Source of the DNA: a virus
Taxonomy: Duplodnaviria > Heunggongvirae > Uroviricota > Caudoviricetes
Length of the DNA: 16,232 nt
IMG/VR virus record: IMGVR_UViG_2562617151_000002
Coordinates: 1 to 16,232 of that record
Reading direction: 5' to 3' (one strand)
The notes under the pieces are model-generated. The model saw only the letters and a program-made list of their open reading frames with translations, had not been told where the DNA came from and made no database searches. Positions 1 through 16,232 of this stretch are shown here, piece by piece. How positions within the stretch are numbered: the stretch's first letter is position 1; every line of letters starts with the position of its first letter. Made by a program: the position numbers and the translations under genes.

Positions 1-1164
1 TTACGCCTTCTTTATATCCTCCATAATTCCACAGTGGGACATATTTGGGACATTATCACCAAAAATGTCGTCTATTTTCCTTGCATGCTCTGTCAAATGA
101 TTAGGCGCAAGGTGAGCATACCTACGAACCATTTCTATGGACTCCCATCCGCCCATTTCCTGAAGCACAGATAATGGGACGCCTGACTGGATCAGCCAGC
201 TTGCCCAGGTGTGTCTGAGGTCATGGAAACGGAAATCTTCAATTCCTGCACGACGACAAGCTGATAGCCATGATGTCTTGCTGTCGATGCGCATCTTCCT
301 GACCGCAGGCGTTGATGTTCCATCTGCTCGCTTAGCCGCCTTGGTATGTACAAACACCCATTTGTGATGCTTGCCTATTTGATCACGCAACACTTTACAG
401 GCGGTATCGTTCAGCGCCACACCAATGGCGCGGTTTGATTTGCTCTCTTCTGGATTCACCCAGGCAACTCGTCGCTGCATGTCGATTTGTTGCCATTCCA
501 GATTTATGATGTTCGACTTTCTCAGACCAGTTGCCAGCGCAAACTTGACGACAGATTTCAGTGGTTCGGGGCACTCATCAATAAGGCGTTTTGCTTCCTC
601 CTTTTCCAGCCATCTGACTCGCTTGTTTCTGACCGCTGGTATCTTGATGACAGGCGCTTTTTCCAGCCACTTCCAGTCGCGTTCTGCAGCACGGAGAATG
701 GCCTTTATCATGGCAAGATGCTTTGCCTTTGTCTGAGTTGATACTGGCTTTGGTTCATAAACAGGCGGTTCTTTACCTTTCCTGATGGCGGCCTGAACTT
801 TCTGTTTCCATATTTCTTTCGTCTTTCTGTTATGCATTCTGCTTACAGCAGAGTAAATCTTTGCCTCCGAGATATCTTTAAGCCTTATACCCTCAAAATG
901 TTCAAGCCAGAACTCAATCCGGCTTTTATCTGAATCGAGAGATTTTTTATCAGCTTTTTCCTCAAGCCATCTTAGGCAGGCCTCTTCAAAAGTGACATCA
1001 GGTAAATCCCCTAGCTTTTCTACTCGCCAGAGTTCTGCTTTTCGCTTGTCGTGCAACTCCTGAGCTTGCCGCTTGTCCTTTGTGCCAAGAGATTCCTTAA
1101 TTCGTTTCCCGCCCGGGAGCGAATACGAGGCATACCATATTTCATTTCTGCGGAAGAGTGACAT
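1..1164 (-). CDS. int: Phage tyrosine integrase (lambda Int family)
   Basis: 387-aa ORF. Translation shows the tyrosine-recombinase catalytic pattern ([10 protein letters not shown] ... VRRYAHL with C-terminal Tyr). ATG at 1164-1162 preceded by GAGGAAAG. Its stop codon is the first codon of the window, so attL lies outside. Confidence 0.9.
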
Positions 1165-1391
1165 TTTCTTTCCTCTGTTATGCCATCACCCGCGCTCACC
1201 TGGACAGTATGCAGCGGAGACTGAAGCGCCGCAATGCAAGCTTGCCGTGTTGTGAGGTAAGGAGATTTTGGCTTGGTTGGATCTTTACGTGTTGCCTGTA
1301 GGCGGCCTGTTCGTATCCAGTTGGTGGCGGTTGGTCTGGATATCTTAAGAAACTGACAGGCCTCATCGAGTGTGAGGCTGTATGGCTCCAT
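1020..1391 (-). CDS. xis: Excisionase-like small DNA-binding protein
   Basis: ATG at 1391-1389 shares a base with the stop of the upstream ORF (TAATG). N-terminus [31 protein letters not shown] resembles small wHTH excisionases. The frame stays open to 1020, overlapping the first 144 nt of int, so the real C-terminal extent is uncertain. Confidence 0.6.
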
Positions 1392-1696
1392 TATTTCACC
1401 TCTTGCTGTGTCATTGTTGAAAAATGGATACCAGCTCGTTGCTGCCAGACGATCCAACCGAGAGTCATATCCCATGCCATGTATTCGTTATCGCCGTTTT
1501 TTACTCTCCGACGATCTACTAAGTCACCGAAACGCTTTTCCATGAATAATTCATAGGCTTCGCGTTCATCTGGCTCTACTTCCAGAGATACGAGTGCGAT
1601 TTCATAAGCACGGCGCTCAATATCGTCTCGAACCTCTAGGCTGCTGATTCGTTCTTTGATTTCTTTAATCAGTTCTTTATTGGTAAATGTGGTCAT
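1391..1696 (-). CDS. Hypothetical phage protein (acidic, 101 aa)
   Basis: ATG at 1696-1694 overlaps the stop of the upstream ORF (TAATG), and its own stop overlaps the xis start, so it is translationally coupled in the leftward operon. No recognisable motif. Confidence 0.5.
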   Translation of the reverse strand: MTTFTNKELIKEIKERISSLEVRDDIERRAYEIALVSLEVEPDEREAYELFMEKRFGDLVDRRRVKNGDNEYMAWDMTLGWIVWQQRAGIHFSTMTQQEVK

Positions 1697-2058
1697 TATG
1701 CTCCAGCCTCCGGTGCTTTTGGCATTACTGCCCAGTGAGTGATATTGAAGTTTTCAAGGTCCCCGACCTGAAATGTCCACTGCCATTCTCCGGTTTCTTT
1801 TTGTCCCCAGGTGTACCAGAGAGAACGCCAGCCAATCAGCCAGCCTTCTCCATTAGCATCAAATAACAGAACACTTTCATTTGCTGGTGGCAGTTCAGCT
1901 GACACTGGTATTATTTTGTTTTCCAGTGCCGCACATTTAGCTTCAAGCGCGTCGAATTTACGTAACAGGTACTCAGCATTTGTTTCATTCACTTTCAGAT
2001 CTCGCGGTACACATTTCCCGCGAAGAAACCCTTCCATTTCGAAAACATTCATGCGCAT
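1696..2058 (-). CDS. Hypothetical phage protein (120 aa, Trp-rich C-terminus)
   Basis: ATG at 2058-2056 is the first gene of the leftward operon. C-terminal GEGWLIGWRSLWYTWGQKETGEWQW pattern resembles small lambdoid b-region/Ea-type proteins. Assignment is by position only. Confidence 0.5.
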   Translation of the reverse strand: MRMNVFEMEGFLRGKCVPRDLKVNETNAEYLLRKFDALEAKCAALENKIIPVSAELPPANESVLLFDANGEGWLIGWRSLWYTWGQKETGEWQWTFQVGDLENFNITHWAVMPKAPEAGA

Positions 2059-2180
2059 TTGCGTAACTCCGATAACTCGTTAAAACGTTCCATAAACATC
2101 CCGTAACCGCAATGCGTCGAATGTTTATCAGCTTAACGTTGCGAAGCTTCAGGCTGCGGCATTTTCTCAACTGTCAGATT

Positions 2181-2240
2181 CTGACCCGTCAAAATCTGAC
2201 GCATCAAAATCTGACCCGTCAAAATTTGATGCGTCGAAAT
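2181..2240. repeat. Four tandem 15-bp iteron-like repeats
   Basis: Units read directly: CTGACCCGTCAAAAT, CTGACGCATCAAAAT, CTGACCCGTCAAAAT, TTGATGCGTCGAAAT. Each carries a 10-bp near-palindrome (TGACNNGTCA) followed by an A-tract. Partial units flank both sides. Confidence 0.6.
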
Positions 2241-2260
2241 CTGGCAAAAAAGCGGGTTTT

Positions 2261-2320
2261 CACCCGTCAGAATCTGGCGGGGATCCGTCAGTAAAATCAA
2301 AACATGATCCGTCAGATAAA
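2261..2320. repeat. Additional CCGTCAG half-site repeats
   Basis: CCGTCAG occurs at 2264-2270, 2285-2291 and 2309-2315, each followed by A-rich sequence. Looks like a continuation of the iteron array. Confidence 0.4.
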
Positions 2321-2814
2321 AAACCTTCTCGTCCGGACGCTTCGCAACCGGACACGCAGACGGCTGAACAGGATTTTTTAACTCGCCATCCTGATGCGGT
2401 TGTATTCAGCCCTAAAAAGCGCCAGTGGGGGACGCAGGATGATTTGACCTGCGCACAGTGGCTCTGGAAAAAAATCATCGCCCTGTACGAGCAGGCTGCC
2501 GAATGTGACGGCGAGGTGGTTCGTCCCAAAGAACCGAACTGGACAGCCTGGGCAAACGAAATTCGCCTGATGTGTGTGCAGGATGGTCGTACTCACAAAC
2601 AAATCTGCGAGATGTACAGCCGCGTCAGCCGCGATCCGTTCTGGTGCCGTAACGTGCTCAGCCCGTCGAAGCTGCGGGAAAAATGGGATGAGCTTTCCCT
2701 GCGCTTATCGCCGTCCGTAAGCACGTACACCGAAAAACGCGAAGACGCGTACTTCAAAGCCAGTTACGACAACGTGGACTACAGCCAGATCCCGGCAGGA
2801 TTCAGGGGGTAATC

Positions 2815-3303
2815 ATGAGTCTTTTGAATGAAGTTCAGAAATTCATTGAAGCCCATCCGGGGTGTACTTCCGGAGACATTGCGGATGCTTTTGCAGGCTA
2901 CTCACGGCAGCGCGTTCTGCAGTCAGCAAGCAAGTTACGTCAGAGTGGGCGTGTGGCTCACCGTTGTGAAGGGGATACACGCAGACATTTCCCGCGCCTG
3001 ACTGAGAGAGCGCAGGAGCCGGAACCACAACCAGTTCGTGAAACCAGACCTGCGCGCAATTTCTATGTCGGCACTAACGATCCACGGGTAATTTTGTGCC
3101 TGACCCGCCAGGCTGAAGAACTGGAGTCCAGGGGCTTATACCGTCGTGCTGCAACCGTGTGGATGGCGGCATTCCGTGAAAGCCACTCCCAACCAGAACG
3201 AAACAATTTTCTGGCGCGTCGTGAGCGGTGTTTACGGAAAAGCAGCAAGCGCGCTGCATCGGGTGAAGAGTGGTATCTGTCAGGGAATTACGTGGGGGCT
3301 TAA
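2815..3303 (+). CDS. Putative regulator: N-terminal wHTH-like region plus PerC-like C-terminal domain
   Basis: ATG 2815 follows the upstream stop by 2 nt. C-terminal segment QAEELESRGLYRRAATVWMAAFRESHSQPERNNFLARRERCLR matches the PerC/Pch family signature (LE..GLYRRAA..W). N-terminus MSLLNEVQKFIEAHPGCTSGDIADAF looks like a small HTH. Confidence 0.5.
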   Translation: MSLLNEVQKFIEAHPGCTSGDIADAFAGYSRQRVLQSASKLRQSGRVAHRCEGDTRRHFPRLTERAQEPEPQPVRETRPARNFYVGTNDPRVILCLTRQAEELESRGLYRRAATVWMAAFRESHSQPERNNFLARRERCLRKSSKRAASGEEWYLSGNYVGA

Positions 3304-3956
3304 TGAGTAATAAATATTGCCAGGCGCTGGTGGAACTGCGGAACAAACCAGCCCATGAACTGAAGGAAGTGGGCGATCAGTGGCGCACGCCGGACAACAT
3401 TTTCTGGGGAATTAACACCCTGTTTGGCCCGTTTGTTCTGGATCTGTTCACTGACGGTGATAACACCAAATGTGCTGCGTATTACACGGCGGAAGACAAC
3501 GCGCTGGCGCATGACTGGTCAGAACGTCTTGCGGAGCTTAAAGGTGCTGCCTTTGGTAATCCCCCATACAGCCGCGCCAGTCAGCATGAGGGGCAATACA
3601 TCACAGGCATGCGTTACATCATGAAGCATGCCAGTGCCATGCGTGATAAAGGTGGGCGCTATGTTTTCCTGATCAAAGCTGCCACCAGCGAAGTGTGGTG
3701 GCCGGAAGATGCAGATCATATTGCTTTTATTCGCGGGCGTATTGGTTTTGAACTGCCTGCCTGGTTTATCCCGAAAGATGAGAAGCAGGTGCCGACAGGC
3801 GCTTTCTTCGCTGGTGCTATTGCTGTTTTCGACAAGACCTGGAAGGGACCGGCAATCAGCTACATCGGGCGCGATGAACTTGAGGCATGTGGTGAGGCGT
3901 TTCTGGCGCAGGTTCGCCAGCAGGCGGAAAAACTGGTCAGGGAGATGGCGGCATGA
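3303..3956 (+). CDS. Phage DNA N6-adenine methyltransferase (Dam-type, orphan)
   Basis: ATG 3303 overlaps the upstream stop (TAATG). Translation has W-TP near the N-terminus, FVLDLFTDGDN, and the catalytic NPPY motif (GNPPYSRAS). An in-frame GTG at 3270 is a less likely start. No restriction partner is adjacent. Confidence 0.8.
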   Translation: MSNKYCQALVELRNKPAHELKEVGDQWRTPDNIFWGINTLFGPFVLDLFTDGDNTKCAAYYTAEDNALAHDWSERLAELKGAAFGNPPYSRASQHEGQYITGMRYIMKHASAMRDKGGRYVFLIKAATSEVWWPEDADHIAFIRGRIGFELPAWFIPKDEKQVPTGAFFAGAIAVFDKTWKGPAISYIGRDELEACGEAFLAQVRQQAEKLVREMAA

Positions 3957-4279
3957 CGACGTTAACTCAATGCCAGCAGCAGGTGCTGGATATGCTGATT
4001 TCTTATCAGAAAGAACGTGGCTTCCCGCCAACCAATCAGGAGGTGGCAACCATGCTGGGATACCGTTCAGTGAATGCAGCGGTGGAGCATCTTCGCGCAC
4101 TGGAGAAAAAAGGCGTCATCACGATAAAGCGTGGTGTGGCCCGGGGGATCACGCTTCATACCGTGGTGAAGGACGACGACAGCGAGGCGGTCGGGATTAT
4201 CCGCTCACTGCTTGCCGGTGAGGAAAACGCCAGGCTGCGTGCAGCCCACTGGTTACATGAGAGGGGCCTGAAAGTATGA
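3953..4279 (+). CDS. LexA N-terminal DNA-binding-domain homolog lacking the S24 peptidase domain
   Basis: ATG 3953 overlaps the dam stop (ATGA). The 108-aa product aligns by eye with LexA residues 1-70 (LT..QQ.V.D.I...G.PPT..E.A..LGYRS.NAA.EHL.AL.KKGVI.I..G..RGI.L). The protein ends before any Ala-Gly cleavage site or Ser/Lys dyad. Confidence 0.75.
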   Translation: MTTLTQCQQQVLDMLISYQKERGFPPTNQEVATMLGYRSVNAAVEHLRALEKKGVITIKRGVARGITLHTVVKDDDSEAVGIIRSLLAGEENARLRAAHWLHERGLKV

Positions 4280-4671
4280 AGCTGATCCTACCTTTTCCGC
4301 CCAGCGTGAACACGTACTGGCGACACCCCAACAAAGGGGCGTTTGCTGGTAAGAGCCTGATAAGCGCGGCGGGGCGAAAATTCCAGAGCGCGGCGTGTGC
4401 AGCAATAGTTGAGCAGTTACGTCGTCTGCCGAAACCAACGTCGGCACCTGCTTCAGTGGAGATCGTGTTGTTTCCTCCGGATAACCGGATCCGCGATCTG
4501 GACAACTATAACAAGGCGCTGTTTGACGCCCTGACCCACGCGGGTGTGTGGGAAGACGACAGTCAGGTGAAAAGAATGCTGGTGGAGTGGGGACCGGTTA
4601 TCCCGGAGGGGAAGGTCGAGATCACTATCAGTAAGTACGAAAAAGCGAGTTGCAAATTAGCAACTCGGTAA
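4276..4671 (+). CDS. rusA: RusA-family Holliday junction resolvase
   Basis: ATG 4276 overlaps the upstream stop (ATGA). Translation has LPFPPSVNTYWR and RDLDNYNKALFDALTHAGVWEDDSQV, the RusA core with catalytic Asp residues. Confidence 0.8.
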   Translation: MKLILPFPPSVNTYWRHPNKGAFAGKSLISAAGRKFQSAACAAIVEQLRRLPKPTSAPASVEIVLFPPDNRIRDLDNYNKALFDALTHAGVWEDDSQVKRMLVEWGPVIPEGKVEITISKYEKASCKLATR

Positions 4672-4716
4672 CGGAATTGAGCAACACCCTAAATTTGGGT
4701 ATTACCTCGTTAAAGA

Positions 4717-4736
4717 TACTGTATTTATGAACAGTG
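4717..4736. promoter_or_regulatory. Near-consensus LexA operator (SOS box)
   Basis: TACTGTATTTATGAACAGTG matches the E. coli LexA box TACTG-(N10)-CAGTA, with CTGT at 4719-4722 and ACAG at 4731-4734. It sits about 100 bp upstream of the next gene start, next to a candidate TTGATA(4742-4747)-17-TAAGTT(4765-4770) promoter. Confidence 0.65.
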
Positions 4737-4833
4737 TATCCTTGATAACTATTAAAAATCGCAGTAAGTTCATCCTGCATCAACGAAAAGGGAGTGCAGT
4801 CCCGCTCGTGGATAAAAATTTGTGGAGAAACCA

Positions 4834-5649
4834 ATGAATCAGTTGCTTGTAATTGATGGCGTTTCTGTGCGCCAGTACTTCGAATCTAACTACTGTCTTA
4901 ACGACCTTCAGAAAGCAGCTCTTCTTGCCGCTGGTGAGAATCGCTCCTCCCGTTCGCTGGAAGTTCACGAGTTTATGCGTCGTCCTGAAACGAAGGCTCT
5001 TGTGGAATTATTGGAAGAAGAAACTACGGGAGATTCCCGTAGTATTCCTGTCATCACCATTCAGGGGCGCAATGGTGGGACGTATGTCTGTAAAGAGCTG
5101 GTCTATGCATATGCAATGTGGATCAGCCCGGCATTCAGCTTAAAAGTGATACGTACTTTTGATGCGCTTCATAATTCATCACCAGAAGAAACCACATCCG
5201 ACAAAATTAAATCCGGGGTCATTCTGCTTGAATCAGCAGCAAAGACTCTAAATCTGTCAAACTCCTCGAAACTTGGTGCATACCAGAAATTATCAAAGGT
5301 AGCTGGTCTTCCTGAACTTATGCCGATCTATGCCATTGATGCACCTGCTGATGCGCCAGATGGTTCAAGCCGCCCTACGCTGTCGCTGAGTGCACTGCTG
5401 AAGCAGTATGGTATCCGCCTGACGGCTAATCAGGCATATCACCAGATGGCGAAGCTGGGGATCGTTGAACAACGCGAACGATACAGCCGTACCGCGATTA
5501 ACAACATCAAAAAATTCTGGTCGCTGACCGCGAAAGGCTGCATGTTCGGCAAGAACATCACCAGTCCTGCAAATCCGCGCGAGACGCAGCCGCATTTCTT
5601 CGAATCCCGATTCCCTGAGCTGTTAAAGCTGCTCGATACCGTTCATTGA
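4834..5649 (+). CDS. Phage antirepressor-like protein (Bro-N/AntA-like N-terminus, KilA-C/ANT-like C-terminus)
   Basis: ATG 4834 has GGAG 6 nt upstream; the in-frame GTG at 4822 is less likely. N-terminal LLVIDGVSVRQYFESNYCLNDLQKAA ... GTYVCKELVYAYAMWISPAFSLKVI and C-terminal AKLGIVEQRE ... KGCMFGKNI resemble phage antirepressor domains. Confidence 0.6.
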   Translation: MNQLLVIDGVSVRQYFESNYCLNDLQKAALLAAGENRSSRSLEVHEFMRRPETKALVELLEEETTGDSRSIPVITIQGRNGGTYVCKELVYAYAMWISPAFSLKVIRTFDALHNSSPEETTSDKIKSGVILLESAAKTLNLSNSSKLGAYQKLSKVAGLPELMPIYAIDAPADAPDGSSRPTLSLSALLKQYGIRLTANQAYHQMAKLGIVEQRERYSRTAINNIKKFWSLTAKGCMFGKNITSPANPRETQPHFFESRFPELLKLLDTVH

Positions 5650-5650
5650 G

Positions 5651-6646
5651 GTGACCGTGAGAGCACTACTGACCCCTGAAATTGCCCCGCGTATGGGGAT
5701 CGTATTGTTCAGACCAGGTTCAGAGCTGATGCCCTTGTTTATGCAGGGGCGTGTCCTGCTGGAGCCTGAGCCGGAACGTTATTCATCTTTCGCCAGTGGT
5801 GCCGTTCCGGCGGCATCACAACCGCTGGCGGATGATCCTGCCGTTCGGGCCGTGTTCCGCAATGAGGCAGTGATCCGTCGTGCTGGTGGCGTGGAATGTC
5901 TTGAAAGCTGGTTACTTCGTGAAAAAGGCTGCCAGTGGCCTCATTCCGACTGGCACAGCGAGAACATGACAACAATGCGACACGCTCCGGGCGCAATCCG
6001 TCTGTGCTGGCACTGCGATAACCAGCTGCGCGATCAGTTCACGGAACGGCTGGAATCAATGGCAACGGATAACTGTGCCCGCTGGGTGTTGTCTGTTGTG
6101 CGTCGGGATCTCGGTTTTGATGACAGTCATGTTGTGACAATGCCGGAACTGTGCTGGTGGCTGATTCGTAATGATCTGGCGGATGCCTTACCGGAAAGTG
6201 CAGCCCGTAAGGCACTGAGATTACCGAAGCCTGTTGTGCCGTCTGTTACCCGGGAAAGTGACCTTGTGCCTTCGGTTCCTGCCACCAGCATCATCCAGGA
6301 TAAGGCGAAAAAGGTGCTGGCGCTGAAAGTGGATCCGGAGTCGCCGGAGTCTTTTATGTTACGCCCAAAACGTCACCGCTGGGTTAATGAAAAGTACACG
6401 CGCTGGGTTAAGACGCAGCCGTGCGCATGTTGTGGAAAACCTGCTGATGATCCCCACCACCTGATAGGCCACGGTCAGGGGGGAATGGGTACAAAAGCGC
6501 ATGACCTTTTTGTGTTGCCTTTGTGCAGAAAGCATCACGACGAGCTGCATGCGGATACCGTGGCATTTGAAGAGAAGTATGGCTCCCAGCTGGAGCTGAT
6601 ATTTCGTTTTATCGATCGCGCACTGGCGATTGGTGTGCTGGCCTGA
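5651..6646 (+). CDS. Prophage protein with C-terminal Cys/His HNH-like motif (DUF968-like)
   Basis: 331-aa ORF immediately after the upstream stop. C-terminus [23 protein letters not shown] ... [10 protein letters not shown] looks like a zinc-binding HNH-type module. Start is uncertain: GTG 5651, GTG 5657 or ATG 5693. Confidence 0.55.
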
Positions 6647-6663
6647 TTTTGTGGAGAAAGTTA

Positions 6664-7047
6664 ATGCGTGATATTCAGATGGTTCTTGAACGTTGGGGAG
6701 CGTGGGCGGCTAATAATCATGAAGATGTGACCTGGTCGTCCATTGCCGCCGGTTTTAAGGGATTAATTCCTTCAAAAGTAAAATCTCGCCCGCAATGTTG
6801 TGACGATGACGCGATGATCATTTGCGGGTGCATGGCCCGTCTGAAAAAGAACAACAGCGATTTACACGATTTATTAGTAGATTATTATGTATGTGGTATG
6901 ACATTCATGTCACTGGCAAGTAAGCATTGCTGCTCGGATGGTTATATCGGGAAAAGGTTACAGAAGGCTGAGGGCATAATTGAAGGGATGTTAATGGCAT
7001 TAGATATCCGGTTAGATATGGATATCGTTGCTAATAATTCTAATTGA
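6664..7047 (+). CDS. Late-gene antiterminator Q-like protein (small QuuD-type)
   Basis: ATG 6664 preceded by GGAG (6652-6655). The 127-aa product is Cys-rich ([23 protein letters not shown]), consistent with a zinc-binding Q. It lies directly upstream of the porin and lysis genes, as in DLP12. The ORF track extends to TTG 6649. Confidence 0.6.
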
Positions 7048-7079
7048 TATGCAATTGTTTACTAAAAGTTATTAAAAAT

Positions 7080-7098
7080 GGGGCGTGGAAACGCCCCC
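7080..7098 (-). terminator. Rho-independent terminator candidate for the porin gene
   Basis: 7-bp GC stem GGGGCGT/ACGCCCC with a 4-nt loop. On the minus strand it is followed by ATTTTTAAT. It lies about 140 nt downstream of the porin stop. Confidence 0.5.
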
Positions 7099-7184
7099 AA
7101 AATAAAGGGTAATATATAACAGAAGGTTTATATAGTAAGAAGCAAGGTAGTGCTTCTAAAGGAAGTGGCTTGAGGGCTCCACTT

Positions 7185-7224
7185 ATATGTTGCGGAGGCA
7201 AAGCCTCCCGCAACATATCTTTTT
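7185..7224 (+). terminator. Rho-independent terminator candidate downstream of Q
   Basis: Long inverted repeat ATATGTTGCGGAGGC / GCCTCCCGCAACATAT (one bulge) followed by CTTTTT on the plus strand. Confidence 0.55.
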
Positions 7225-7235
7225 CGTAAGTCAGA

Positions 7236-8318
7236 TTAGAACTGATAAACCAGACCTACAGCGACGATGTCGTCGGTATCAATACCAGCTGTTTTGGTAA
7301 ACTTACTATCGTCAATTAAGTTGATTTTGTAATCAACAAAAGTGGACATGTTTTTATTAAAGTAGTAAGTAGCACCGACATCGACATACTTGACTAAGTC
7401 TCGGTCACCATGAACACCAAGGTCTTTACCTTTTGACTGAAGGTAAGCAACAGATGGACGCAGACCGAAGTCAAACTGATATTGTGCTACTGCTTCAAAG
7501 TTTTGTGCTTTGTTTGCAATATGGTTATTACCAAAAACGGTCATATTCTGAGTTTCAGAATATGTGGTAGCCAGATAGATATTGTTCGCATCATATTTCA
7601 GGCCTGCAGCCCATACTTCCGCATTTTTGCCGGAGGCATTGAATTTGCTCTTACCATAGGCGACCTGACCGTCAGTGCGATCTGATTTAGCATAGGTTGC
7701 ACCCACGCCGAATCCTTCATACTCATAAGTAGTGGAGAAACCGAAACCATCACCATTGGCTTCAGTTACGTCAGTGCGGTCATTTTTACCCTGATACTGA
7801 GCAGCAAAGTTCAGGCCATCGACCAGACCAAAGAAGTCGTTGTTACGATAAGTTGCAACACCAGTAGTGCGACCAGTCATGAACACATCTGTTTGGGTCC
7901 AGGTATCACCACCGAATTCTGGCAGGACGTCAGTCCACGCACCGATGTCGTATGCTACACCGTAGTTACGGCCGTAATCGATTGAGCCGTAATCACCAAA
8001 TTTCAGGCCTGCAAATGCAAGACGGGTTTTGTCTTTGGAAGAACCTTGAGATTCAGCACGGTTGCCTTTGAATTCATATTCCCACTGACCGAAACCAGTC
8101 AGTTGATCGTTGATTTGGGTTTCACCTTTGAAGCCAAGACGGGCATAAGTAGTATCACCATCATCTGCATCATTAGAGGAGAAGTAGTGCTTGGCATTAA
8201 CTTTCCCGTATAGATCCAGCTTGTTACTGTCTTTATTATAAATTTCAGCTGCCTGAGCAGACATCGCCATCAGTACTGATGCAGCTACAGCAGAAATTGC
8301 CACTGTTAATTTTTTCAT
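7236..8318 (-). CDS. nmpC: Prophage-encoded general porin (OmpC/OmpF/PhoE family; NmpC/Lc type)
   Basis: 360-aa ORF with a signal peptide ([23 protein letters not shown]|AEIYNKD), porin motifs ([52 protein letters not shown]) and C-terminal VGLVYQF. It sits between Q and the holin on the opposite strand, as nmpC does in DLP12 and lc in PA-2. The exact symbol is uncertain. Confidence 0.85.
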
Positions 8319-8745
8319 TGTACGCCCTTTTTTTTGAACTATTATTAAAAAATGATGTCACTGCGCGATAAATATTCATCTAATCAATGCGATTATTTCA
8401 AGATGTAAGTTTTAGTTTCTCATTTAATTTGTGAAGTAGATCTCTATTTTTATCTAAACCTTTTCTATCTAATCCTATTCATGGCTCTTGTTTGAACGAA
8501 AATAAATCTATTAGCTAATTTATATTAATGGCACTTATTTATAAGAGATCTATAATTCTTTAGCTTAATTTAAACAAACTAAAAATAACATCGGAAATTA
8601 TTCATTGGTTATTTGTTGAAGTTTTCTTATGTATTTGTGGTGGTGTTTTGAACACTCGGTGGCATTCTCACAAATATCATTTAGTAGTTTACGTACGTAA
8701 AAAATTGGTTATGCTGTTAAGAGTGGTTACTTCGTCACACAGCTT
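8319..8745. promoter_or_regulatory. AT-rich non-coding region upstream of the porin and lysis cassette
   Basis: About 430 bp with no ORF of 60 aa or more and many A/T runs (8340-8640). Probably holds the porin promoter (minus strand) and possibly a late promoter, for example TTGAAC at 8648-8653 with AAATAT about 18 bp downstream. Confidence 0.4.
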
Positions 8746-8775
8746 AAACCCGCCGTCGAGCGGGTTTTTCCATTT
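8746..8775 (+). terminator. Rho-independent terminator candidate about 130 bp upstream of the holin (tR'-like)
   Basis: Stem AACCCGC/GCGGGTT (8747-8753 / 8760-8766) with loop CGTCGA, followed by TTTTCCATTTTTT on the plus strand. Confidence 0.5.
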
Positions 8776-8907
8776 TTTGAGTCTCGATATTAGCTGATAA
8801 CCCAATACCTGAGTTATTCACTGACTCCGAATCTGTTACGTTTCTGCCTTTATTGCGATACGTAGTATCCCCTTAATTTACACCCGCTTTGTCTGCGAGG
8901 TGGGGTT

Positions 8908-9123
8908 ATGAAATCCATGGATAAGTTAACAACGGGTGTCGCCTATGGCACCTCAGCAGGTAGTGCCGGATACTGGTTTTTACAGCTGCTAGATAAAGTC
9001 ACGCCCTCACAGTGGGCGGCAATTGGAGTGCTGGGTAGCCTGGTATTTGGCCTGCTGACGTACCTGACAAACCTTTATTTCAAGATTAAAGAAGATAAGC
9101 GCAAGGCTGCGAGAGGTGGATAA
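8908..9123 (+). CDS. S: Class II holin, phage-21 S-type (pinholin) with dual-start motif
   Basis: 71-aa ORF beginning MKSM (Met1 and Met4). Two hydrophobic segments and a basic C-terminus ([13 protein letters not shown]). Stop overlaps the endolysin start (TAATG). Confidence 0.85.
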
Positions 9124-9620
9124 TGCCTCCATCATTACGAAAAGCTGTTGCTGCTGCTATTGGTGGCGGGGCTATTGCTATAGCATCTGTGTTAATCACT
9201 GGCCCAAGTGGTAACGATGGTCTGGAAGGTGTGAGACATAATCCTTACAAAGACATAGTTGGTGTATGGACTGTATGTTACGGGCATACAGGAAAAGACA
9301 TCATTCCCGGTAAAACGTATACCGAAGCAGAGTGCAAAGCCCTCCTGAATAAAGACCTTGCCACTGTCGCCAGACAAATTAACCCGTACATCAAAGTCGA
9401 TATACCGGAAACAACGCGCGGCGCTCTTTACTCGTTCGTCTACAACGTGGGTGCTGGCAATTTCAGAACATCGACGCTTCTTCGCAAAATCAACCAGGGC
9501 GATATCAAAGGCGCATGTGACCAGCTACGTCGCTGGACATACGCTGGCGGTAAGCAATGGAAAGGGCTGATGACTCGCCGTGAGATTGAGCGTGAAGTCT
9601 GTTTGTGGGGGCAGCAATGA
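9123..9620 (+). CDS. R: SAR endolysin (T4-lysozyme-like muramidase, R21-type)
   Basis: N-terminal Gly/Ala-rich signal-anchor-release segment [30 protein letters not shown], followed by a lysozyme catalytic region ([25 protein letters not shown]). 165 aa. Confidence 0.9.
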
Positions 9621-10054
9621 GCAGGTTAACCGCGATTATCTCCGCTCTGGTTATCTGCATCATCGTCTGTCTGTCATGGGCTGTTAATCATTACCGTGAT
9701 AACGCCATTACCTATAAAGAACAGCGCGATAAAGCCACGTACATCATCGCTGACATGCAGAAGCGTCAACGTGACGTAGCAGAACTCGATGCCAGATATA
9801 CAAAGGAGCTTGCTGATGCTAACGCGACTATCGAAAGTCTCCGTGCTGATGTTTCTGCTGGGCGTAAGCGCCTGCAAGTCGCCGCCACCTGTGCAAAGTC
9901 AACGACCGGAGCCAGCGGCATGGGCGATGGAGAAAGCCCAGGACTTACAGCAGATGCTGAACTCAATTATTACCGTCTCCGAAGTGGAATCGACAAGATA
10001 ACCGCGCAGGTTAACTACCTGCAGGAATACATCAGGACGCAATGCCTGAATTAA
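9617..10054 (+). CDS. Rz: Rz i-spanin
   Basis: ATG 9617 overlaps the endolysin stop (ATGA). N-terminal TM segment ([20 protein letters not shown]), then a coiled-coil periplasmic domain. The ORF track extends to GTG 9605. Confidence 0.8.
9816..10001 (+). CDS. Rz1: Rz1 o-spanin lipoprotein, embedded in Rz in the +1 frame
   Basis: ATG 9816 preceded by AAAGGAG (9802-9808). Lipoprotein signal [20 protein letters not shown], then a Pro-rich mature region ([13 protein letters not shown]). Lies entirely within the Rz coordinates. Confidence 0.7.
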
Positions 10055-10083
10055 TTTTTTTGCAAATCACAAAGTCCATTTAA

Positions 10084-10107
10084 TGAGCCTCGCGATGCGG
10101 GGCTTTT
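10084..10107 (+). terminator. Terminator candidate after Rz (first of two)
   Basis: Hairpin GAGCCTCGC-GAT-GCGGGGCT followed by TTTTT. Confidence 0.45.
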
Positions 10108-10114
10108 TGCAATA

Positions 10115-10139
10115 AATGCGTACCGCAACGCATGTTTTT
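10115..10139 (+). terminator. Terminator candidate after Rz (second of two)
   Basis: Stem ATGCGT/ACGCAT with loop ACCGCA, followed by GTTTTTT. Confidence 0.55.
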
Positions 10140-10255
10140 TACACCGAACCTGCCCCTTTGGAATGGGCCTTTGAGGATACCAGTTAGTGCTGGCGAGCCT
10201 CGGTGGGCTGGTTTCCTGTGCGGCAAAGGTTCATTTCAAAGAGTAGGTACACGCT

Positions 10256-10753
10256 ATGAAATCATTAACCCTCTTCAATCAACCAATTCGTATCGGTGAA
10301 GATGGCATGATCTGCCTCACTGATATGTGGAAAGCCAGTGGTAAAAGTGAATCTGAATCGCCTTACCACTACCTGCGAAACAAGCAGACCAAAGAGTTCT
10401 TAGCCGAGCTGGAGAAAAACCACGAATCTGTGGTTTTTACTGAGCGCGGTGTACACGGTGGAACATATGGCGGGAAGTTTGTTGCTTACGATTATGCGGC
10501 TTGGTTAAACCCCGGGTTCAAGTACGCGGCCTATAAAGTCCTCGATGACTACTTCACCGGAGAACTTCAGCATCGCAACAGCTTAAGTGCGCAGCTCAAC
10601 ATGAAATGTCATGAGTTTGACCAGAAGAAAGACATGGCGAGCTTCTGCGGACAAGGGCTGGCAGCATGGCGCTATACGAAGCCAGTGTTGGTCGCTGAGA
10701 TTAACTCCCTGGCTAACCAGCTGCAGATTACGATCCCCGGGCTTCCGGGATGA
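10256..10753 (+). CDS. KilA-N domain protein
   Basis: ATG 10256 preceded by AGAGTAGG. Translation FNQPIRIGEDGMICLTDMWKASGK ... GTYGGKFVAYDYAAWLNPGFKYA fits the KilA-N/APSES-type fold pattern. Occupies the post-lysis position where bor sits in DLP12. Confidence 0.7.
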   Translation: MKSLTLFNQPIRIGEDGMICLTDMWKASGKSESESPYHYLRNKQTKEFLAELEKNHESVVFTERGVHGGTYGGKFVAYDYAAWLNPGFKYAAYKVLDDYFTGELQHRNSLSAQLNMKCHEFDQKKDMASFCGQGLAAWRYTKPVLVAEINSLANQLQITIPGLPG

Positions 10754-11007
10754 GTGATCGTGTTATTGAATGCGCCTCCAGAGCGGGGCGCGACTTCTCA
10801 GAGTTCATGAAAGGCGAGAAGGGCATGATGGAAGCATTGGCCTCGGTGGATGAGTTTGGCGAGCAGCTGCGCCTCAACGGCTGTGTCAATCATCACTTTG
10901 TTAGCTACATGATGCGGAACTCGATCATGCAGGCATTCATGGACATGGCAAAAGCCGAGAGGAAAGAAGAGCGCCGGCGTAAGCGAGCGGAAGCAAAAGC
11001 GAAGTAG
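10750..11007 (+). CDS. Hypothetical protein (85 aa) with basic C-terminal tail
   Basis: ATG 10750 overlaps the KilA-N stop (ATGA). C-terminus KAERKEERRRKRAEAKAK. No recognisable family. Confidence 0.5.
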   Translation: MSDRVIECASRAGRDFSEFMKGEKGMMEALASVDEFGEQLRLNGCVNHHFVSYMMRNSIMQAFMDMAKAERKEERRRKRAEAKAK

Positions 11008-11293
11008 CCATTACAAAGCCTATCTACGGGTGGGCTTGATAATGGCTTATACCCTACACGGGATAACTTAACTGATATCCCTTTTAAAGGATAAAGGTAT
11101 TCAAGCCTGACACATCATGCGCTGTATCGTCGCCGTGTTCCCGTATTAACAGAGACCGTAGCCCGACGGGGAACTCCTTCTGCGCGAGTGTGCGGGAATA
11201 ATCAAAAACGATGCACACCGGGGTTACCGGGTACACATATTTCATCATGCCAGCGAGTCCGGTTCTGGCACGGAAGAAACCGGACGTTATGAT

Positions 11294-11704
11294 TTAGTGC
11301 GGAAATATTTGTGTAGTGTTCTGAATGTTCTCAGTAAAGAGTAATGAATTATCAAAGGTATAGTAATACCTTTTGTTTTCGTGGATATTTGTAATCCATC
11401 TGAAAACCCCTGCTGTAGCAAGATTTTTCCTGTATTCGTAAAATGATAACTCTCCTGATTTGAATCCTTTTAAGGTGGCTTCTATAAGGCATTTATTTTT
11501 TGAAAATCTTACATTTACAACCTTACCCTGTCCTTTTATTAAAACCGTATTATCGTTTTCAAGAACAAGATGAATATTCTCTGTGGCTAAATAGTAAATG
11601 TAATGTGAGACATTGTGACGTTTTAGTTCAGAATAAAACCAGTGATAGTTTAAATTATTTCGCACTTTATCGAATATTTGTTTAAAAATGGCAACCTGAG
11701 CCAT
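11294..11704 (-). CDS. AT-rich cargo gene, hypothetical (possibly YbcV-like envelope-protein family)
   Basis: Visibly lower G+C than its flanks. The ATG at 11704-11702 has GGAAGG 8 nt upstream and gives 136 aa; the ORF track starts 5 codons earlier at 11719. Opposite strand to the late operon. The family guess rests on position and size only. Confidence 0.5.
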
Positions 11705-11761
11705 TGTAGTACCTTCCATGTGATATGAGGGGGCGTAGTCTGCACGATTATCTAGATTGCT

Positions 11762-11995
11762 TCAATCTGGTCTAACCTGTTTTCTGAGCAATTCAGTAAT
11801 GTCACTCTTTTCTTTGTTTGCTTCAGGCGAAACTCTTTTTTCTGAGCACAGTCTCCGGCGGCAGGCTTCAATGACCCAGGCTGAGAAATTCCCGGACCCT
11901 TTTTGAACAAGAGCGATGTTAATTTGTTCAATCATTTGGTTAGGAAAGCGGATGTTGCGGGTTGTTGTTCTGCGGGTTCTGTTCTTCGTTGACAT
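11762..11995 (-). CDS. Small basic ribbon-helix-helix-like putative DNA-binding protein
   Basis: 77-aa ORF. N-terminal basic stretch then IRFPNQMIEQINIALVQKGSGNFSAWVIEACRRRL looks like an Arc/MetJ-type strand-helix-helix. Lies 42 bp upstream of the AT-rich gene on the same strand. Confidence 0.45.
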   Translation of the reverse strand: MSTKNRTRRTTTRNIRFPNQMIEQINIALVQKGSGNFSAWVIEACRRRLCSEKRVSPEANKEKSDITELLRKQVRPD

Positions 11996-12059
11996 GAGGT
12001 TGCCCTGTATTCAGTGTCGCTGATTTGTATTGTCTGAAGTTGTTTTTACGTTAAGTTGA

Positions 12060-12376
12060 TGCAGATCAATTAATACGATACCTGCGTCATAATTGATTAT
12101 TTGACGTGGTTTGATGGCGTAGATGCACGTTGTGACATGTAGATGATAATTATTATCATTTTTCGGGTCCTTTCCGGCGATCCGACAGGTTACGGGGCGG
12201 CGACCTCGCGGGTTTTCGCTATTTATGAAAATTTTCCGGTTTAAGGCGTTTCCGTTCTTCTTCGTCGTAACTTAATGTTTTTATTTAAAATACCCCCTGA
12301 AAAGAAAGGAAACGACAGGTGCTGAAAACGAACTTTTGGGCCTCTGTCGTTTCCTTTCTCTGTTTTGGGCCGTGGA
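12060..12376. other. cos: Lambda-type cohesive-end site (cosQ-cosN-cosB)
   Basis: From my recollection of the lambda genome ends: ...CCGACAGGTTACG followed by cosN GGGCGGCGACCT at 12175-12186, then the cosB region CGCGGGTTTTCGCTATTTATGAAAATTTTCCGGTTTAAGGCG... up to the nu1 start, with only a few substitutions. Confidence 0.85.
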
Positions 12377-12383
12377 ATGAACA

Positions 12384-12457
12384 ATGGAAGTCAACAAAAA
12401 GCAGCTGGCTGACATTTTCGGTGCGAGTATCCGTACCATTCAGAACTGGCAGGAACA
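12384..12457 (+). pseudogene. nu1: Terminase small subunit nu1, 5' stub (first about 25 codons only)
   Basis: ATGGAAGTCAACAAAAAGCAGCTGGCTGACATTTTCGGTGCGAGTATCCGTACCATTCAGAACTGGCAGGAACA matches the lambda nu1 start (MEVNKKQLADIFGASIRTIQNWQE). Identity ends after 12457 and the frame stops soon after. Confidence 0.85.
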
Positions 12458-12661
12458 CCGGGCAGCATGGCGGACAGTCGGTCGCAGGCGTCCGGGAAGT
12501 TTGAGCAGAATAACCATGTGGTGATTAACAACGACGGCACGAACGGGCAGATAGGTCCGGCTGCTCTGAAGGCGGTGTATGACATGGCCCGCAAGGGTGC
12601 CCGTGATGAAATTCAGACACAGATGCGTGATGGTGGCCTGTTCTCCGGAGGTGGACGATGA
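12458..12661 (+). pseudogene. H: 3' remnant of tail tape-measure gene H
   Basis: Sequence after the junction encodes ...SQASGKFEQNNHVVINNDGTNGQIGPAALKAVYDMARKGARDEIQTQMRDGGLFSGGGR, and its stop overlaps the M start (ATGA) as in lambda. It is in a different frame from the nu1 stub. Confidence 0.8.
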
Positions 12662-12987
12662 AGACCTTCCGCTGGAAAGTGAAACCCGGTATGGATGTGG
12701 CTTCGGTCCCTTCTGTAAGAAAGGTGCGCTTTGGTGATGGCCATTCCCAGCGAGCGCCTGCCGGGCTGAATGCCAACCTGAAAACGTACAGCGTGACGCT
12801 TTCTGTCCCCCGTGAGGAGGCCACGGTACTGGAGTCGTTTCTGGAAGAGCACGGGGGCTGGAAATCCTTTCTGTGGACGCCGCCTTATGAGTGGCGGCAG
12901 ATAAAGGTGACCTGCGCAAAATGGTCGTCGCGGGTCAGTATGCTGCGTGTTGAGTTCAGCGCAGAGTTTGAACAGGTGGTGAACTGA
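12658..12987 (+). CDS. M: Minor tail protein M (intact)
   Basis: The 109-aa product (MKTFRWKVKPGMDVASVPSVRKVRFGDG...SAEFEQVVN) matches lambda gpM from memory over essentially its full length. Confidence 0.9.
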   Translation: MKTFRWKVKPGMDVASVPSVRKVRFGDGHSQRAPAGLNANLKTYSVTLSVPREEATVLESFLEEHGGWKSFLWTPPYEWRQIKVTCAKWSSRVSMLRVEFSAEFEQVVN

Positions 12988-14936
12988 TGCAGGATAACAG
13001 CGCACAGGCGGCAGCGGCCTCGCAGACTGCATCGGCAAACTCCGCAACAGCAGCTAAAAAATCAGAAACCAACGCGAAAAATAGCGAGACAGCCGCAAAG
13101 ACGAGCGAAACCAACGCAAAGTCCAGCCAGACGGCAGCGAAGACCAGCGAAACGAATGCTAAAGCCAGTGAAACTGCAGCAAAAAACAGCCAGGTTGCAG
13201 CAGCCCAAAGCGAGAGCGCGGCAGCCGGTTCTGCGACTTCAGCAGCTGGATCAGCAACTGCTGCGGCTAACAGCCAGAAAGCTGCGAAGACGAGTGAAAC
13301 TAACGCAAAGTCCAGCCAGACGGCAGCGAAGACCAGCGAAACGAATGCCAAAGCCAGTGAAACTGCGGCGAAAAGCAGTCAGGATGCAGCAGCCCAAAGC
13401 GAGAGTGCTGCAGCTGGTTCTGCAAGCGCGGCGGCTGCTTCTGCCACTGCATCAGCCAACAGTCAAAAAGCAGCAAAAACCAGTGAAACCAATGCAAAGA
13501 CAAGCGAGACTGCAGCGGCGAACTCGGCGAAAGCATCGGCAGCAAGCCAGACGGCAGCTAAAGCAAGCGAAGATGCAGCCAGAGAGTACGCAAGCCAGGC
13601 TGCGGAGCCGTATGAATATGTCTTACAGCCGCTGCCTGATGTGTGGATACCGTTTAACGATTCGCTGGATATGATTACGGGCTTTTCGCCATCATATAAA
13701 AAAATTGTTATTGGTGACGATGAAATAACGATGCCTGGCGACAAGATTGTTAAGTTTAAACGTGCATCGAAAGCAACCTATATTAACAAATCTGGTGTGC
13801 TGACAGAGGCTGCCATTGACGAGCCACGATTTGAACGTGATGGCCTGCTTATTGAGGGGCAAAGAACAAACTACATGCTCAATTCGGAAAGCCCTGCCAG
13901 TTGGGGGCGATCGTCAAATATGGATGTGCCCGAAACTGGGACGGATAGTTTTGGTTTTACCTATGGAAAGTTTGTCTGTAACGATTCTCTGATTGGGCAA
14001 ACCTCAGCCATTAATATGGCATCAATTGCTGCAACAAAGTCAGTTGATGTCTCAGGCGATAATAAATACGTGACAACCTCATGTCGTTTTAAAACAGAAC
14101 TGCAGGTAAGGTTGCGTATCCGGTTTGATAAATATGACGGTAGCGCAACAACTTTTCTTGGTGATGCGTATATTGATACACAAACGCTTGAAACTAATAT
14201 GACAGGCGGCGCTGCCTCAAGGATTACAGCGAGAGTCAGAAAGGACGAAGCTACCGGATGGATTTTTGCAGAGGCAACAATTCAGGCAATTGATGGGGAG
14301 TTAAAAATAGGTTCTCAGATACAGTATTCTCCTAAGCAGGGCGGGGCAACCGTATCTGGTGACTATATTTATCTGGCCACCCCACAAGTAGAAAATGGGC
14401 CTTGTGTATCATCTTTTATTATATCAGGAACGACGGCGGCGACCCGTGCAAGTGATATGGTAACTATTCCCGCAAGAAACAATATTTATAAACAACCTAT
14501 CAGTGTTCTTATTGAAGTTAATAAGAATTGGGATATTGTGCCAAACGGAGCACCAAGAATTTTTGACCTGAACGCAACATCATCATTCGCTGAAGAGTCT
14601 TTTATATTTGCATTCCGAGGGCCGACATCAACAGTTCTTCCTGGATCGGCATATGTTAGTGTTGGTTCCCCGTCAAGAGGAACTGGTAACAATGAAGTTG
14701 TAAACACTGGAATATATGGAGTTAAAATAGACAAAGATGGCGGCTTAGCAGCGTCGCTGAATGGTAACATTTCATCAAAAGTCAGTACTTCATGGGGTGG
14801 TGCTATAAAATCAACGGCAATAAGAATAGGAGGGCAGACAACTGCCGGAACGAGGCATTTGTTTGGACACATCAGGAATTTCAGAATATGGCATAAAGAA
14901 TTAACTGATGCGCAAATGGGGGAGAGTATTAAATGA
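12987..14936 (+). CDS. Side-tail-fibre-like protein; apparent fusion of the L start to an internal Stf repeat region, with a lectin-like C-terminal domain
   Basis: First 10 nt ATGCAGGATA equal the lambda L start (MQD), then the sequence switches to Ala-rich AKTSETNAKSSQTAAK repeats typical of Stf. The C-terminal approx 400 aa are non-repetitive and end in GHIRNFRIWHKELTDAQM, resembling the last strand of LamG/concanavalin-like jelly rolls. ATG overlaps the M stop. Confidence 0.7.
   Translation: MQDNSAQAAAASQTASANSATAAKKSETNAKNSETAAKTSETNAKSSQTAAKTSETNAKASETAAKNSQVAAAQSESAAAGSATSAAGSATAAANSQKAAKTSETNAKSSQTAAKTSETNAKASETAAKSSQDAAAQSESAAAGSASAAAASATASANSQKAAKTSETNAKTSETAAANSAKASAASQTAAKASEDAAREYASQAAEPYEYVLQPLPDVWIPFNDSLDMITGFSPSYKKIVIGDDEITMPGDKIVKFKRASKATYINKSGVLTEAAIDEPRFERDGLLIEGQRTNYMLNSESPASWGRSSNMDVPETGTDSFGFTYGKFVCNDSLIGQTSAINMASIAATKSVDVSGDNKYVTTSCRFKTELQVRLRIRFDKYDGSATTFLGDAYIDTQTLETNMTGGAASRITARVRKDEATGWIFAEATIQAIDGELKIGSQIQYSPKQGGATVSGDYIYLATPQVENGPCVSSFIISGTTAATRASDMVTIPARNNIYKQPISVLIEVNKNWDIVPNGAPRIFDLNATSSFAEESFIFAFRGPTSTVLPGSAYVSVGSPSRGTGNNEVVNTGIYGVKIDKDGGLAASLNGNISSKVSTSWGGAIKSTAIRIGGQTTAGTRHLFGHIRNFRIWHKELTDAQMGESIK
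13116..13234. repeat. Intragenic direct repeat, copy 1 (about 119 bp)
   Basis: GCAAAGTCCAGCCAGACGGCAGCGAAGACCAGCGAAACGAATGC... recurs 189 bp downstream with a handful of substitutions. Confidence 0.7.
13305..13423. repeat. Intragenic direct repeat, copy 2 (about 119 bp)
   Basis: Near-identical to 13116-13234. The 189-bp offset equals 63 codons, so the protein repeat stays in frame. Confidence 0.7.
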
Positions 14937-15214
14937 AAGATTTAACACTCAAATTTGCCGACAGGGCCGACTTTTCGGCTTTTATGGGAAGTATTGGCTA
15001 TTATAATGACGAGTCGATGCAGGATGATATTCTTATTGATGTGATAGGTAACGTGTACAAAGAAACCGGAGAGCTGACTGAAGATGGCGAACCGGTATGT
15101 GTTAAGGAAGACGGATATTTTGTAAACGTGCGCATCATTAATGATGTGAAAACACCGTCAATATTCGATGAATACGTGGTTGCTGTTGAGCATCAACTTC
15201 GTGGCTGGATGTGA
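14933..15214 (+). CDS. Hypothetical small acidic protein (93 aa)
   Basis: ATG 14933 overlaps the fibre gene stop (ATGA). No recognisable motif. Sits where tfa would be in lambda but is not Tfa-like. Confidence 0.5.
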   Translation: MKDLTLKFADRADFSAFMGSIGYYNDESMQDDILIDVIGNVYKETGELTEDGEPVCVKEDGYFVNVRIINDVKTPSIFDEYVVAVEHQLRGWM

Positions 15215-15223
15215 GGAAGAAAA

Positions 15224-15928: not shown

Positions 15929-15938
15929 AGGAGGAGTA

Positions 15939-16232
15939 ATGGATATAACACCTTTTCTTCATGCGCTTTGTGCTGTGGCTGCGCAGGTAATGATTGGTCT
16001 TTTTGCCGGAAACTGGGTTTACGGGGCGATAGCCGGTTGTACGTTCTTCATTGCGCGTGAACACACCCAGGCAGAATATCGCTGGATTGAAATGTTCGGG
16101 CATGGCAAGCGGATTAACATGCCGTGGTGGGGCGGTTTTGATCCGCGTGTTTGGGATGTGGCAAGCCTGATAGATTTTGCTGTGCCGGTGGTGGCGTGTC
16201 TGCTGGTCTGGCTGTTGGTTAATCGTGGGTGA
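15939..16232 (+). CDS. Small integral membrane protein (two predicted TM segments)
   Basis: ATG 15939 preceded by AAGGAGGAG. Hydrophobic segments ALCAVAAQVMIGLFAGNWVYGAIAGCTFFI and LIDFAVPVVACLLVWLLV. Stop codon is the last triplet of the window. Confidence 0.5.
   Translation: MDITPFLHALCAVAAQVMIGLFAGNWVYGAIAGCTFFIAREHTQAEYRWIEMFGHGKRINMPWWGGFDPRVWDVASLIDFAVPVVACLLVWLLVNRG

Follow-up and report, generated by a model that had tools for sequence, protein, structure and literature searches.

An antisense NmpC/Lc-type porin cassette between a Q21/Q933W-family antiterminator gene and its predicted late promoter in a lambdoid prophage

Question and layout of the locus

In canonical Q cassettes, such as those of Q21 and lambda, the antiterminator gene Q is followed by the late promoter PR', a pause element, a terminator and the late genes (bioRxiv 10.1101/651190). 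The 16,232 nt of IMG/VR record IMGVR_UViG_2562617151_000002 (positions 1 to 16,232, hereafter the window) are a portion of a lambdoid E. coli prophage that shares with this arrangement a Q21-family Q, a promoter, a promoter-proximal terminator and late genes. The adjacency of Q and promoter is interrupted in the window by an antisense cargo cassette containing a porin gene. This raises the question of where late transcription starts, and whether it crosses the porin gene. With good confidence, positions 7048-8907 were assigned as an NmpC/Lc lysogenic-conversion porin cassette, inserted antisense between a Q21/Q933W-family Q gene and its cognate late unit. The layout was derived from the listing of open reading frames (ORFs) of the window and a Pfam search, and the following features were used.

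6664-7047, plus strand: Q antiterminator, 127 aa, Q21/Q933W family (QuuD type); Phage_antitermQ PF06530, E = 7.7e-54.
7066-7238, minus strand: 3' untranslated region (UTR) of the porin, apparent homologue of the small RNA IpeX, ∼168 nt; stop codon (7238-7236) to intrinsic terminator.
7070-7098, minus strand: predicted intrinsic terminator of the porin/IpeX transcript, stem 7097-7080, U-run 7079-7070; terminator scan.
7185-7224, plus strand: palindrome (15/16 bp) with T5, terminator-like, downstream of Q; on the minus strand, the 5' stem-loop of IpeX.
7236-8318, minus strand: NmpC/Lc-type general porin, 360 aa, with signal peptide; Porin_1 full length (1-337/337), E = 1.9e-151.
8319-8684, minus strand: AT-rich (27% GC) upstream/regulatory region of the porin; GC content and weak 8/12 promoter candidates.
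8688-8745, plus strand: predicted late promoter PR' and conserved initial transcribed region; alignments with VT2-Sakai, SC370, SfII and Stx2a_1447.
8746-8778, plus strand: promoter-proximal hairpin with T-runs, presumed Q-sensitive terminator; scan and fold.
8908-9123, plus strand: P21-type holin S; PF04971.
9123-9620, plus strand: lysozyme R; PF00959.

The Q ORF spans 6649-7047, with the ATG of Q at 6664. The protein is 96% identical to QuuD of K-12 and 81% identical to Q of VT2-Sakai across aa 1-120, and it matched the Q21 structures 6P18/6JNX at E = 4e-8. Its Pfam family, PF06530, is that of Q21/Q933W. The first late genes are holin S and lysozyme R (8908-9620, plus strand). The original prediction, made from the letters of the window, had listed a complete OmpC-family porin antisense between Q and the lysis cassette, a plus-strand hairpin with a T-run near the porin 3' end (7185-7224), a minus-strand hairpin past that end (7080-7098) and a further plus-strand terminator (8746-8775) ∼130 bp ahead of the holin and downstream of a candidate promoter. 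All of these were recovered at those positions by ORFs, Pfam, terminator scan and folding.

Late promoter downstream of the porin cassette

The spacer between porin and holin was searched in distant mode and gave 360 phage records, most of which matched 8685-8769 only. In Shiga toxin (Stx) phages this match sits right after Q, and in VT2-Sakai and SC370 the matched DNA is annotated as putative late promoter, Q-utilization or terminator. The alignments have the order TTTACG, a 16-nt spacer, TAT..T, TAAGAGTGGTTAC and AACCCGCCG....GCGGGTTTTT, with the stem identical and the loop variable across phages. In the window the predicted -35 is TTTACG (8688-8693), followed by a 16-nt spacer, the -10 TATGCT (8710-8715) and the core TAAGAGTGGTTAC, which was found once in the window, at 8718-8730. 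A palindrome, TTTACGTACGTAAA (8688-8701; element 8688-8704), overlaps the -35. Homology of the PR' region with the Sakai Stx phages spans 8688-8775.

In both Sakai Stx phages the PR' start, determined by differential RNA sequencing, and the tR' 3' end, determined by Term-seq, are 258 nt apart (Sy et al., PMC7547250). The Sakai start was located by counting 258 nt back from the tR' T-run in VT2-Sakai (L003 ∼1538-1540) and, projected onto the window, gave an estimated start at 8721-8723, 6-8 nt past the -10. The published coordinate of the transcription start site, 1,266,203, was set aside, as it falls inside Q on NC_002695.2.

The plus-strand terminator AAACCCGC-CGTCGA-GCGGGTTT occupies 8746-8767, with T-runs to 8778. 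Its folding energy is -12.2 kcal/mol (z = -2.4), and 133 nt lie between its end and the holin ATG (8908). From homology and from conservation over 60-67 loci (see below), a cognate PR' with a promoter-proximal terminator appears to stand before the late genes, as in Q21/Q933W cassettes; it is separated from Q by 1638 nt instead of following it directly.

The Stx phages 933W and VT2-Sakai (Sp5), the source of the RNA StxS, have the same Q family and a homologous -35, -10, initial transcribed region and first hairpin. They differ from the window in two respects. Their PR' overlaps the 3' end of Q, whereas that of the window lies 1.64 kb from Q, and their second terminator at +258, which defines StxS, is absent from the window. 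No homologue of the 74-nt StxS was found in the window, where the match to the 258-nt RNA is limited to its first ∼50 nt.

Conservation of the promoter and its pairing with Q

Relatives of Q were scanned in one genome per species, and 80 loci were searched with a profile of the PR' core. One core match was obtained in ∼70 of the 80, always on the strand of Q and downstream of it. After removal of duplicates, 67 non-redundant loci of the Q21/Q933W family remained, from many Enterobacterales genera. Across 60 cores aligned without gaps, the -10 was invariant at its T, A and final T. The class of the upstream element agreed with the Q clade in 66/67 loci. The three classes were as follows.

TTTACG(TA/AT)CGTAAA: 31 loci, Q at least 64% identical to that of the window.
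Class B element TAACGCGTACGCAAAA: 30 loci, Q 43-55% identical to that of the window.
TTGCGTAATTACAAA: 5 loci of Xenorhabdus/Photorhabdus.

This palindromic -35 element (alignment columns 4-20), tracking the clade as it does, behaves as a candidate Q-binding element would be expected to. A GC-rich hairpin with a T-run follows soon after the core in 57/67 loci, with differing stem sequences. The invariant -10 positions, the clade-matched upstream elements and these hairpins together argue for a working, Q-specific promoter. The late promoter of the Q21/Q933W family can be found by the core TAnnnTG(A/T)TAAGAGTG and its hairpin, even kilobases from Q.

Among phage records, Q-like DNA was found in 362 and PR'-like DNA in 360. 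Among 80 close relatives of Q in IMG/VR, the porin and then the core come after Q in all loci that extend far enough. In a few, tRNA-Met, tRNA-Arg and ∼4.5 kb of late cargo resembling that of Stx phages stand between the core and the holin. Since this cargo separates core from holin, the core stays with Q and the porin and not with S.

In L043-L045 and L028 (e.g., L045 9053-13602) the Stx-like late stretch includes a 653-aa ORF, the porin cassette being joined to a different late region.

An inverted repeat, GTGG....(T/C)CAC, was observed at 8723-8738, ∼+2 to +17 of the late transcript. It was 87% paired across 60 loci (alignment columns 40-44 with 51-55), with one pair co-varying (A-U 22, G-C 12, G-U 11), and may represent either a hairpin in the RNA or a site in the DNA.

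Porin gene and upstream region

The porin is a full-length protein of the OmpC/OmpF/PhoE type by Pfam and NCBIfam, with a signal sequence at the N terminus that is visible in the translation. NCBIfam assigned it to the subfamily 'porin OmpC' with 521 bits against a cutoff of 484 bits. It is 91% identical over 347 aa to the nmpC fragment of DLP12 of K-12, and, as with NmpC/Lc, its gene is flanked by Q and the lysis genes of a lambdoid prophage and runs antisense to them. The module is the classical nmpC/lc porin cassette of the DLP12/PA-2 lineage, already known and very common.

The region upstream of the porin is 93% identical to DLP12. It was counted with the cassette because homology to the Stx phages starts only at 8685, and by this comparison 8319-8684 is part of the porin cassette. 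A promoter scan of 8319-8684 gave candidates no better than weak 8/12 matches.

At 8327-8335, just 5' of the porin start codon, is a T-run in which PhiR49_1 and DLP12 depart from the window by one base. Shorter versions of the run bring an upstream ATG into frame, so that some records annotate a porin of 380 aa; the 360-aa form begins at the signal peptide. A partial CRP-like site, TGTGA-AGTAGA-TCTCT, is present upstream of the porin at 8430-8445 and is identical in DLP12.

The porin 3' UTR and the hairpins next to Q

The distance from the porin stop codon (7238) to ∼7070 is ∼168 nt. IpeX is described as a 167-nt RNA corresponding to the 3' part of the porin transcript, in cis (PMC12197685), and reportedly acts as a repressor of OmpC and OmpF, both porins of the host; further papers name it among the repressors of ompC. 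The 3' UTR is 96% identical to the ipeX region of DLP12 over the whole quuD-nmpC spacer and folds at -53.6 kcal/mol (z = -6.2 against shuffled sequence). In related prophages (22 sequence variants) changes fall mostly in hairpin loops. By position, length and sequence, the porin 3' UTR is identified as an IpeX homologue. An Rfam search of the whole window at a permissive threshold gave chance-level matches to microRNAs and small nucleolar RNAs only, none of them in this region, with no usable model for IpeX or StxS.

The minus-strand terminator is formed by GGGGCGTTTCCACGCCCC and ATTTTTAATA at 7097-7080 (-13.8 kcal/mol, z = -3.1). Termination of the porin transcript at 7098-7070 is supported by this prediction and consistent with the published description of IpeX (PMC12197685).

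The plus-strand hairpin, ATATGTTGCGGAGGC-AAA-GCCTCCCGCAACATAT, occupies 7185-7218, with TTTTT behind it at 7220-7224. Its folding energy is -21.9 kcal/mol on the plus strand (z = -6.5, 0/200 shuffles equal) and -22.5 kcal/mol on the minus strand (z = -5.4). The palindrome is kept in all porin-carrying relatives. On the plus strand its probable role is to halt early transcripts that run out of Q and are not antiterminated. This is the least certain step of the scheme, because the same sequence is equally constrained by IpeX. The scan of 6400-9300 gave 5 terminator-like sites where 2.4 ± 1.4 were expected; taken singly the hairpins are real, yet their number is only modestly above chance.

If both terminators of the spacer work, the Q 3' end (∼7224) and the porin/IpeX 3' end (∼7070) overlap by ∼155 nt (7070-7228) in perfect antisense. 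More speculatively, this overlap would permit interplay between early phage transcripts and IpeX at the RNA level.

Predicted course of transcription

The porin would be transcribed leftward from its own promoter within 8319-8684, and its mRNA would end at 7098-7070, with the ∼168-nt 3' UTR acting as IpeX. Q would be made by the early rightward operon, and early transcripts that run past Q without antitermination would most likely be halted by the plus-strand hairpin at 7185-7224. PR' is predicted to fire rightward from ∼8722. In the absence of Q its transcript would halt at 8746-8778 as an RNA of ∼50 nt; once Q has loaded at PR', RNA polymerase would read on through S, R and Rz to the structural genes. 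For this phage, the activity of the promoter, its dependence on Q and the efficiency of termination are all read from sequence here. With PR' placed to the right of the porin cassette, a late transcript would start beyond the porin gene and never meet it.

The original prediction had proposed a late promoter/tR' unit upstream of S rather than beside Q, with the porin shielded from late antisense transcription. The promoter position is upheld by Stx PR' homology and conservation, and the shielding by a start at ∼8722, beyond the porin gene. The label tR' for 8746-8775 stays presumptive, because the homologous promoter-proximal hairpin of the Stx phages is not the mapped tR', which is at +258.

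Several observations weigh against the placement of a working PR' and terminator at 8688-8778. PR' scores 8/12 for the sigma-70 consensus, under the scan threshold of 9, and its reality is therefore argued from homology and conservation, not from the consensus score. The same scan at 9/12 found no promoter in 7048-7235; consensus scanning is uninformative here, as it misses PR' as well. The conserved TAAGAGTG and the inverted repeat are present in the initial transcribed region, with no clear -10-like hexamer there for a sigma-dependent pause. The mapped 258-nt transcript of Sakai runs through the homologous first hairpin (+27 to +49), and the hairpin at 8746-8778 may be a weak or leaky terminator. 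The literature on DLP12 gives a sigma-E-dependent start ∼355 nt upstream of the PR' start, a distance inferred from primer mapping. Lambda_2E9 has a Q that is 87.5% identical to that of the window and no PR' core within 5.8 kb.

The Sakai transcript could mean that PR' is rightly assigned and that 8746-8778 is not a functional terminator but part of a pause or Q-loading element, with S silenced in another way (Rho, translation control). The 258-nt PR' RNA of Sakai passes the homologous hairpin and ends at a second terminator, and the conserved inverted repeat at +2 to +17 hints at extra RNA or DNA elements. We consider this unlikely. The scan found 8746-8778 to be the sole terminator-like site between PR' and S, with no other in 8778-8908; a GC-rich hairpin with a T-run is kept here in 57/67 family loci although the stems differ; and uncontrolled holin/endolysin transcription from a constitutive PR' would be harmful.

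The DLP12 start bears on a second alternative, in which 8688-8778 is a conserved relic, the lysis genes are transcribed mainly from an upstream sigma-E-type promoter, as in cryptic DLP12, and the hairpin is an attenuator only. A sigma-E-like motif was found on the plus strand, with GAACT at 8336-8340, a 17-nt spacer, TCACT at 8358-8362 and a start at ∼8367, and is identical in DLP12. The published primer Pdlp12Fw is described as lying at -121 relative to the start of the lysis operon in DLP12; its match in the window, 8246-8265, puts +1 at ∼8367; the reverse primer Pdlp12Rv was unmatched, and the estimate is anchored by the forward primer alone. The motif (8336-8367) is divergent from the porin start codon, and its transcript would cross PR' and meet the hairpin at 8746-8778. 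Against a relic, the -10 is invariant and the upstream elements are specific to the Q clade (60-67 loci), which speaks for purifying selection that keeps a Q-dependent promoter working, and the prophage matches the inducible phage PhiR49_1, which needs Q-dependent late expression. A sigma-E promoter and PR' are also not mutually exclusive, and this alternative was judged very unlikely.

Hardly credible is a lambda-like layout with PR' right after Q (7048 to ∼7150), 7185-7224 as tR' and Q-modified polymerase reading antisense through the porin and 8746-8778 to S: although 7185-7224 with its T5 is the strongest terminator-like structure of the region, at a distance from the Q end similar to the PR'-tR' spacing of lambda, and two weak 8/12 promoter-like matches (7086-7115 and 7109-7136) lie before it, the spacer 7048-7235 has no homology to any Q-adjacent promoter and is associated only with the porin, as the ipeX region, the conserved family core has its single occurrence at 8718-8730, and in many family loci antisense cargo abuts or overlaps the Q stop codon and leaves no space for a promoter. 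The spacer was present in 35 of the 362 phage records with Q-like DNA, and those listed were all porin carriers; it was assigned to the porin and not to Q because, in the listed records, it was found only alongside the porin. In favour of the lambda-like layout, Lambda_2E9 (L006 2893-3050 and L008 3380-3555) seems to have a promoter-like site and a tR'-like terminator of the Stx type directly past Q, and then an antisense gene for the lipocalin Blc.

Lambda_2E9 also has a second promoter/terminator-like pair ahead of the holin, and its Q diverges in the C-terminal segment.

Antisense cargo between Q and PR'

With the porin cassette placed between Q and PR', the same interval was compared across the 67 loci. 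The core starts at -10 to +136 nt from the Q stop codon, the textbook arrangement, in 31 loci. It is displaced by 0.65-2.9 kb in the other 36, which include the window (1638 nt) and DLP12 (2852 nt with IS5). Examples of Q-to-core gaps (of L090-L169) are given below.

L132: 8404-10682.
L155: 8364-9771.
L144: 8357-9968.
L131: 8393-11158.

The gaps contained 64 antisense ORFs of at least 130 aa, in 34 sequence clusters, and a handful of sense ORFs. PADLOC models were matched by 8 of the 20 cargo proteins tested. The matches included PD-Lambda-5 A and B, Kiwa KwaB and PDC-M53 A and B, and further an NsnB/OLD-like ATPase, a PDC-M68A-like nuclease and NA37, NYN and SDH-protease domains. Many cargo representatives matched nothing in these comparisons. 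SfII and Stx2a_1447 have the same architecture with uncharacterised antisense genes.

By these comparisons the site between Q and PR' recurrently holds antisense cargo, of which the porin cassette is one example, and the gap of the 36 loci is likely a hotspot for defence genes and morons. The cargo pattern itself (36/67 loci, 34 clusters, 8/20 with PADLOC) is well supported. The wider proposal, that the Q/PR' junction is a general antisense-cargo hotspot for lysogenic conversion and anti-phage defence in Q21/Q933W prophages of the Enterobacterales, and one both real and not already published, is put forward tentatively and may well not hold. A limited literature search found no paper describing the junction as a hotspot.

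The hotspots of P2 and P4 (PMC9122126) and of E. coli prophages (bioRxiv 10.1101/2022.05.12.491691) likewise combine a fixed junction, flanked by conserved phage genes, with highly variable cargo, and the cargo of the Q/PR' junction resembles theirs in including the known defence systems PD-Lambda-5, Kiwa KwaB and PDC-M53. Unlike those hotspots, the junction here is Q/PR' of lambdoid prophages and the cargo is almost always antisense. The site would be transcriptionally sheltered, with the last early gene before it and a constitutive late promoter after it, which would allow cargo expression in the lysogen without collision. If the hotspot is true, the NmpC/IpeX cassette would be its E. coli example, giving protection by a receptor swap, since OmpC, which it replaces, is a receptor for phages. 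Searches for prophage cargo, unknown defence genes included, could usefully be aimed at the gap between Q and the core.

Prevalence and known relatives

The 2.6 kb of 6600-9200 match an E. coli chromosome at 100% identity, the inducible phage PhiR49_1 at ∼100% and many other temperate coliphages at 98-99%. At least 80% of this segment is carried by 2391 of 5426 complete E. coli genomes. DLP12 (qsr') of K-12 shares the order and orientation quuD - nmpC - essD - rrrD - rzpD, and its PR' core and hairpin are identical to those of the window. They differ in that nmpC of DLP12 is broken by IS5 near its 3' end, whereas the porin of the window is intact, and in that DLP12 is cryptic while the prophage of the window matches an inducible phage.

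The lc porin of PA-2 reportedly causes lysogenic conversion, and its 3' UTR (IpeX) is said, by Castillo-Keller et al. in 2006, to repress OmpC of the host. The published IpeX is 167 nt and the porin 3' UTR of the window ∼168 nt. The link of the cassette to the PA-2 lineage and to Highton et al., 1985 is established and is also drawn from reference lists. The arrangement of the porin in qsr', IpeX and the Q-dependent control of DLP12 lysis are all in the literature; little in the window is new, and the cargo hotspot at Q/PR' is the sole possibly new angle. Annotation pipelines label the porin gene 'OmpC/OmpD' and overlook both IpeX and the late promoter.

Other features of the window

Outside the cassette, the ORF listing and Pfam placed the following gene upstream of Q.

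5651-6646: DUF968 gene.

Repeated ATCTGAC/GTCAAAA units at 2172-2246 gave a spurious microRNA match in Rfam. They are probably origin iterons, since they lie within a region matching the replication O gene of PhiR49_1.

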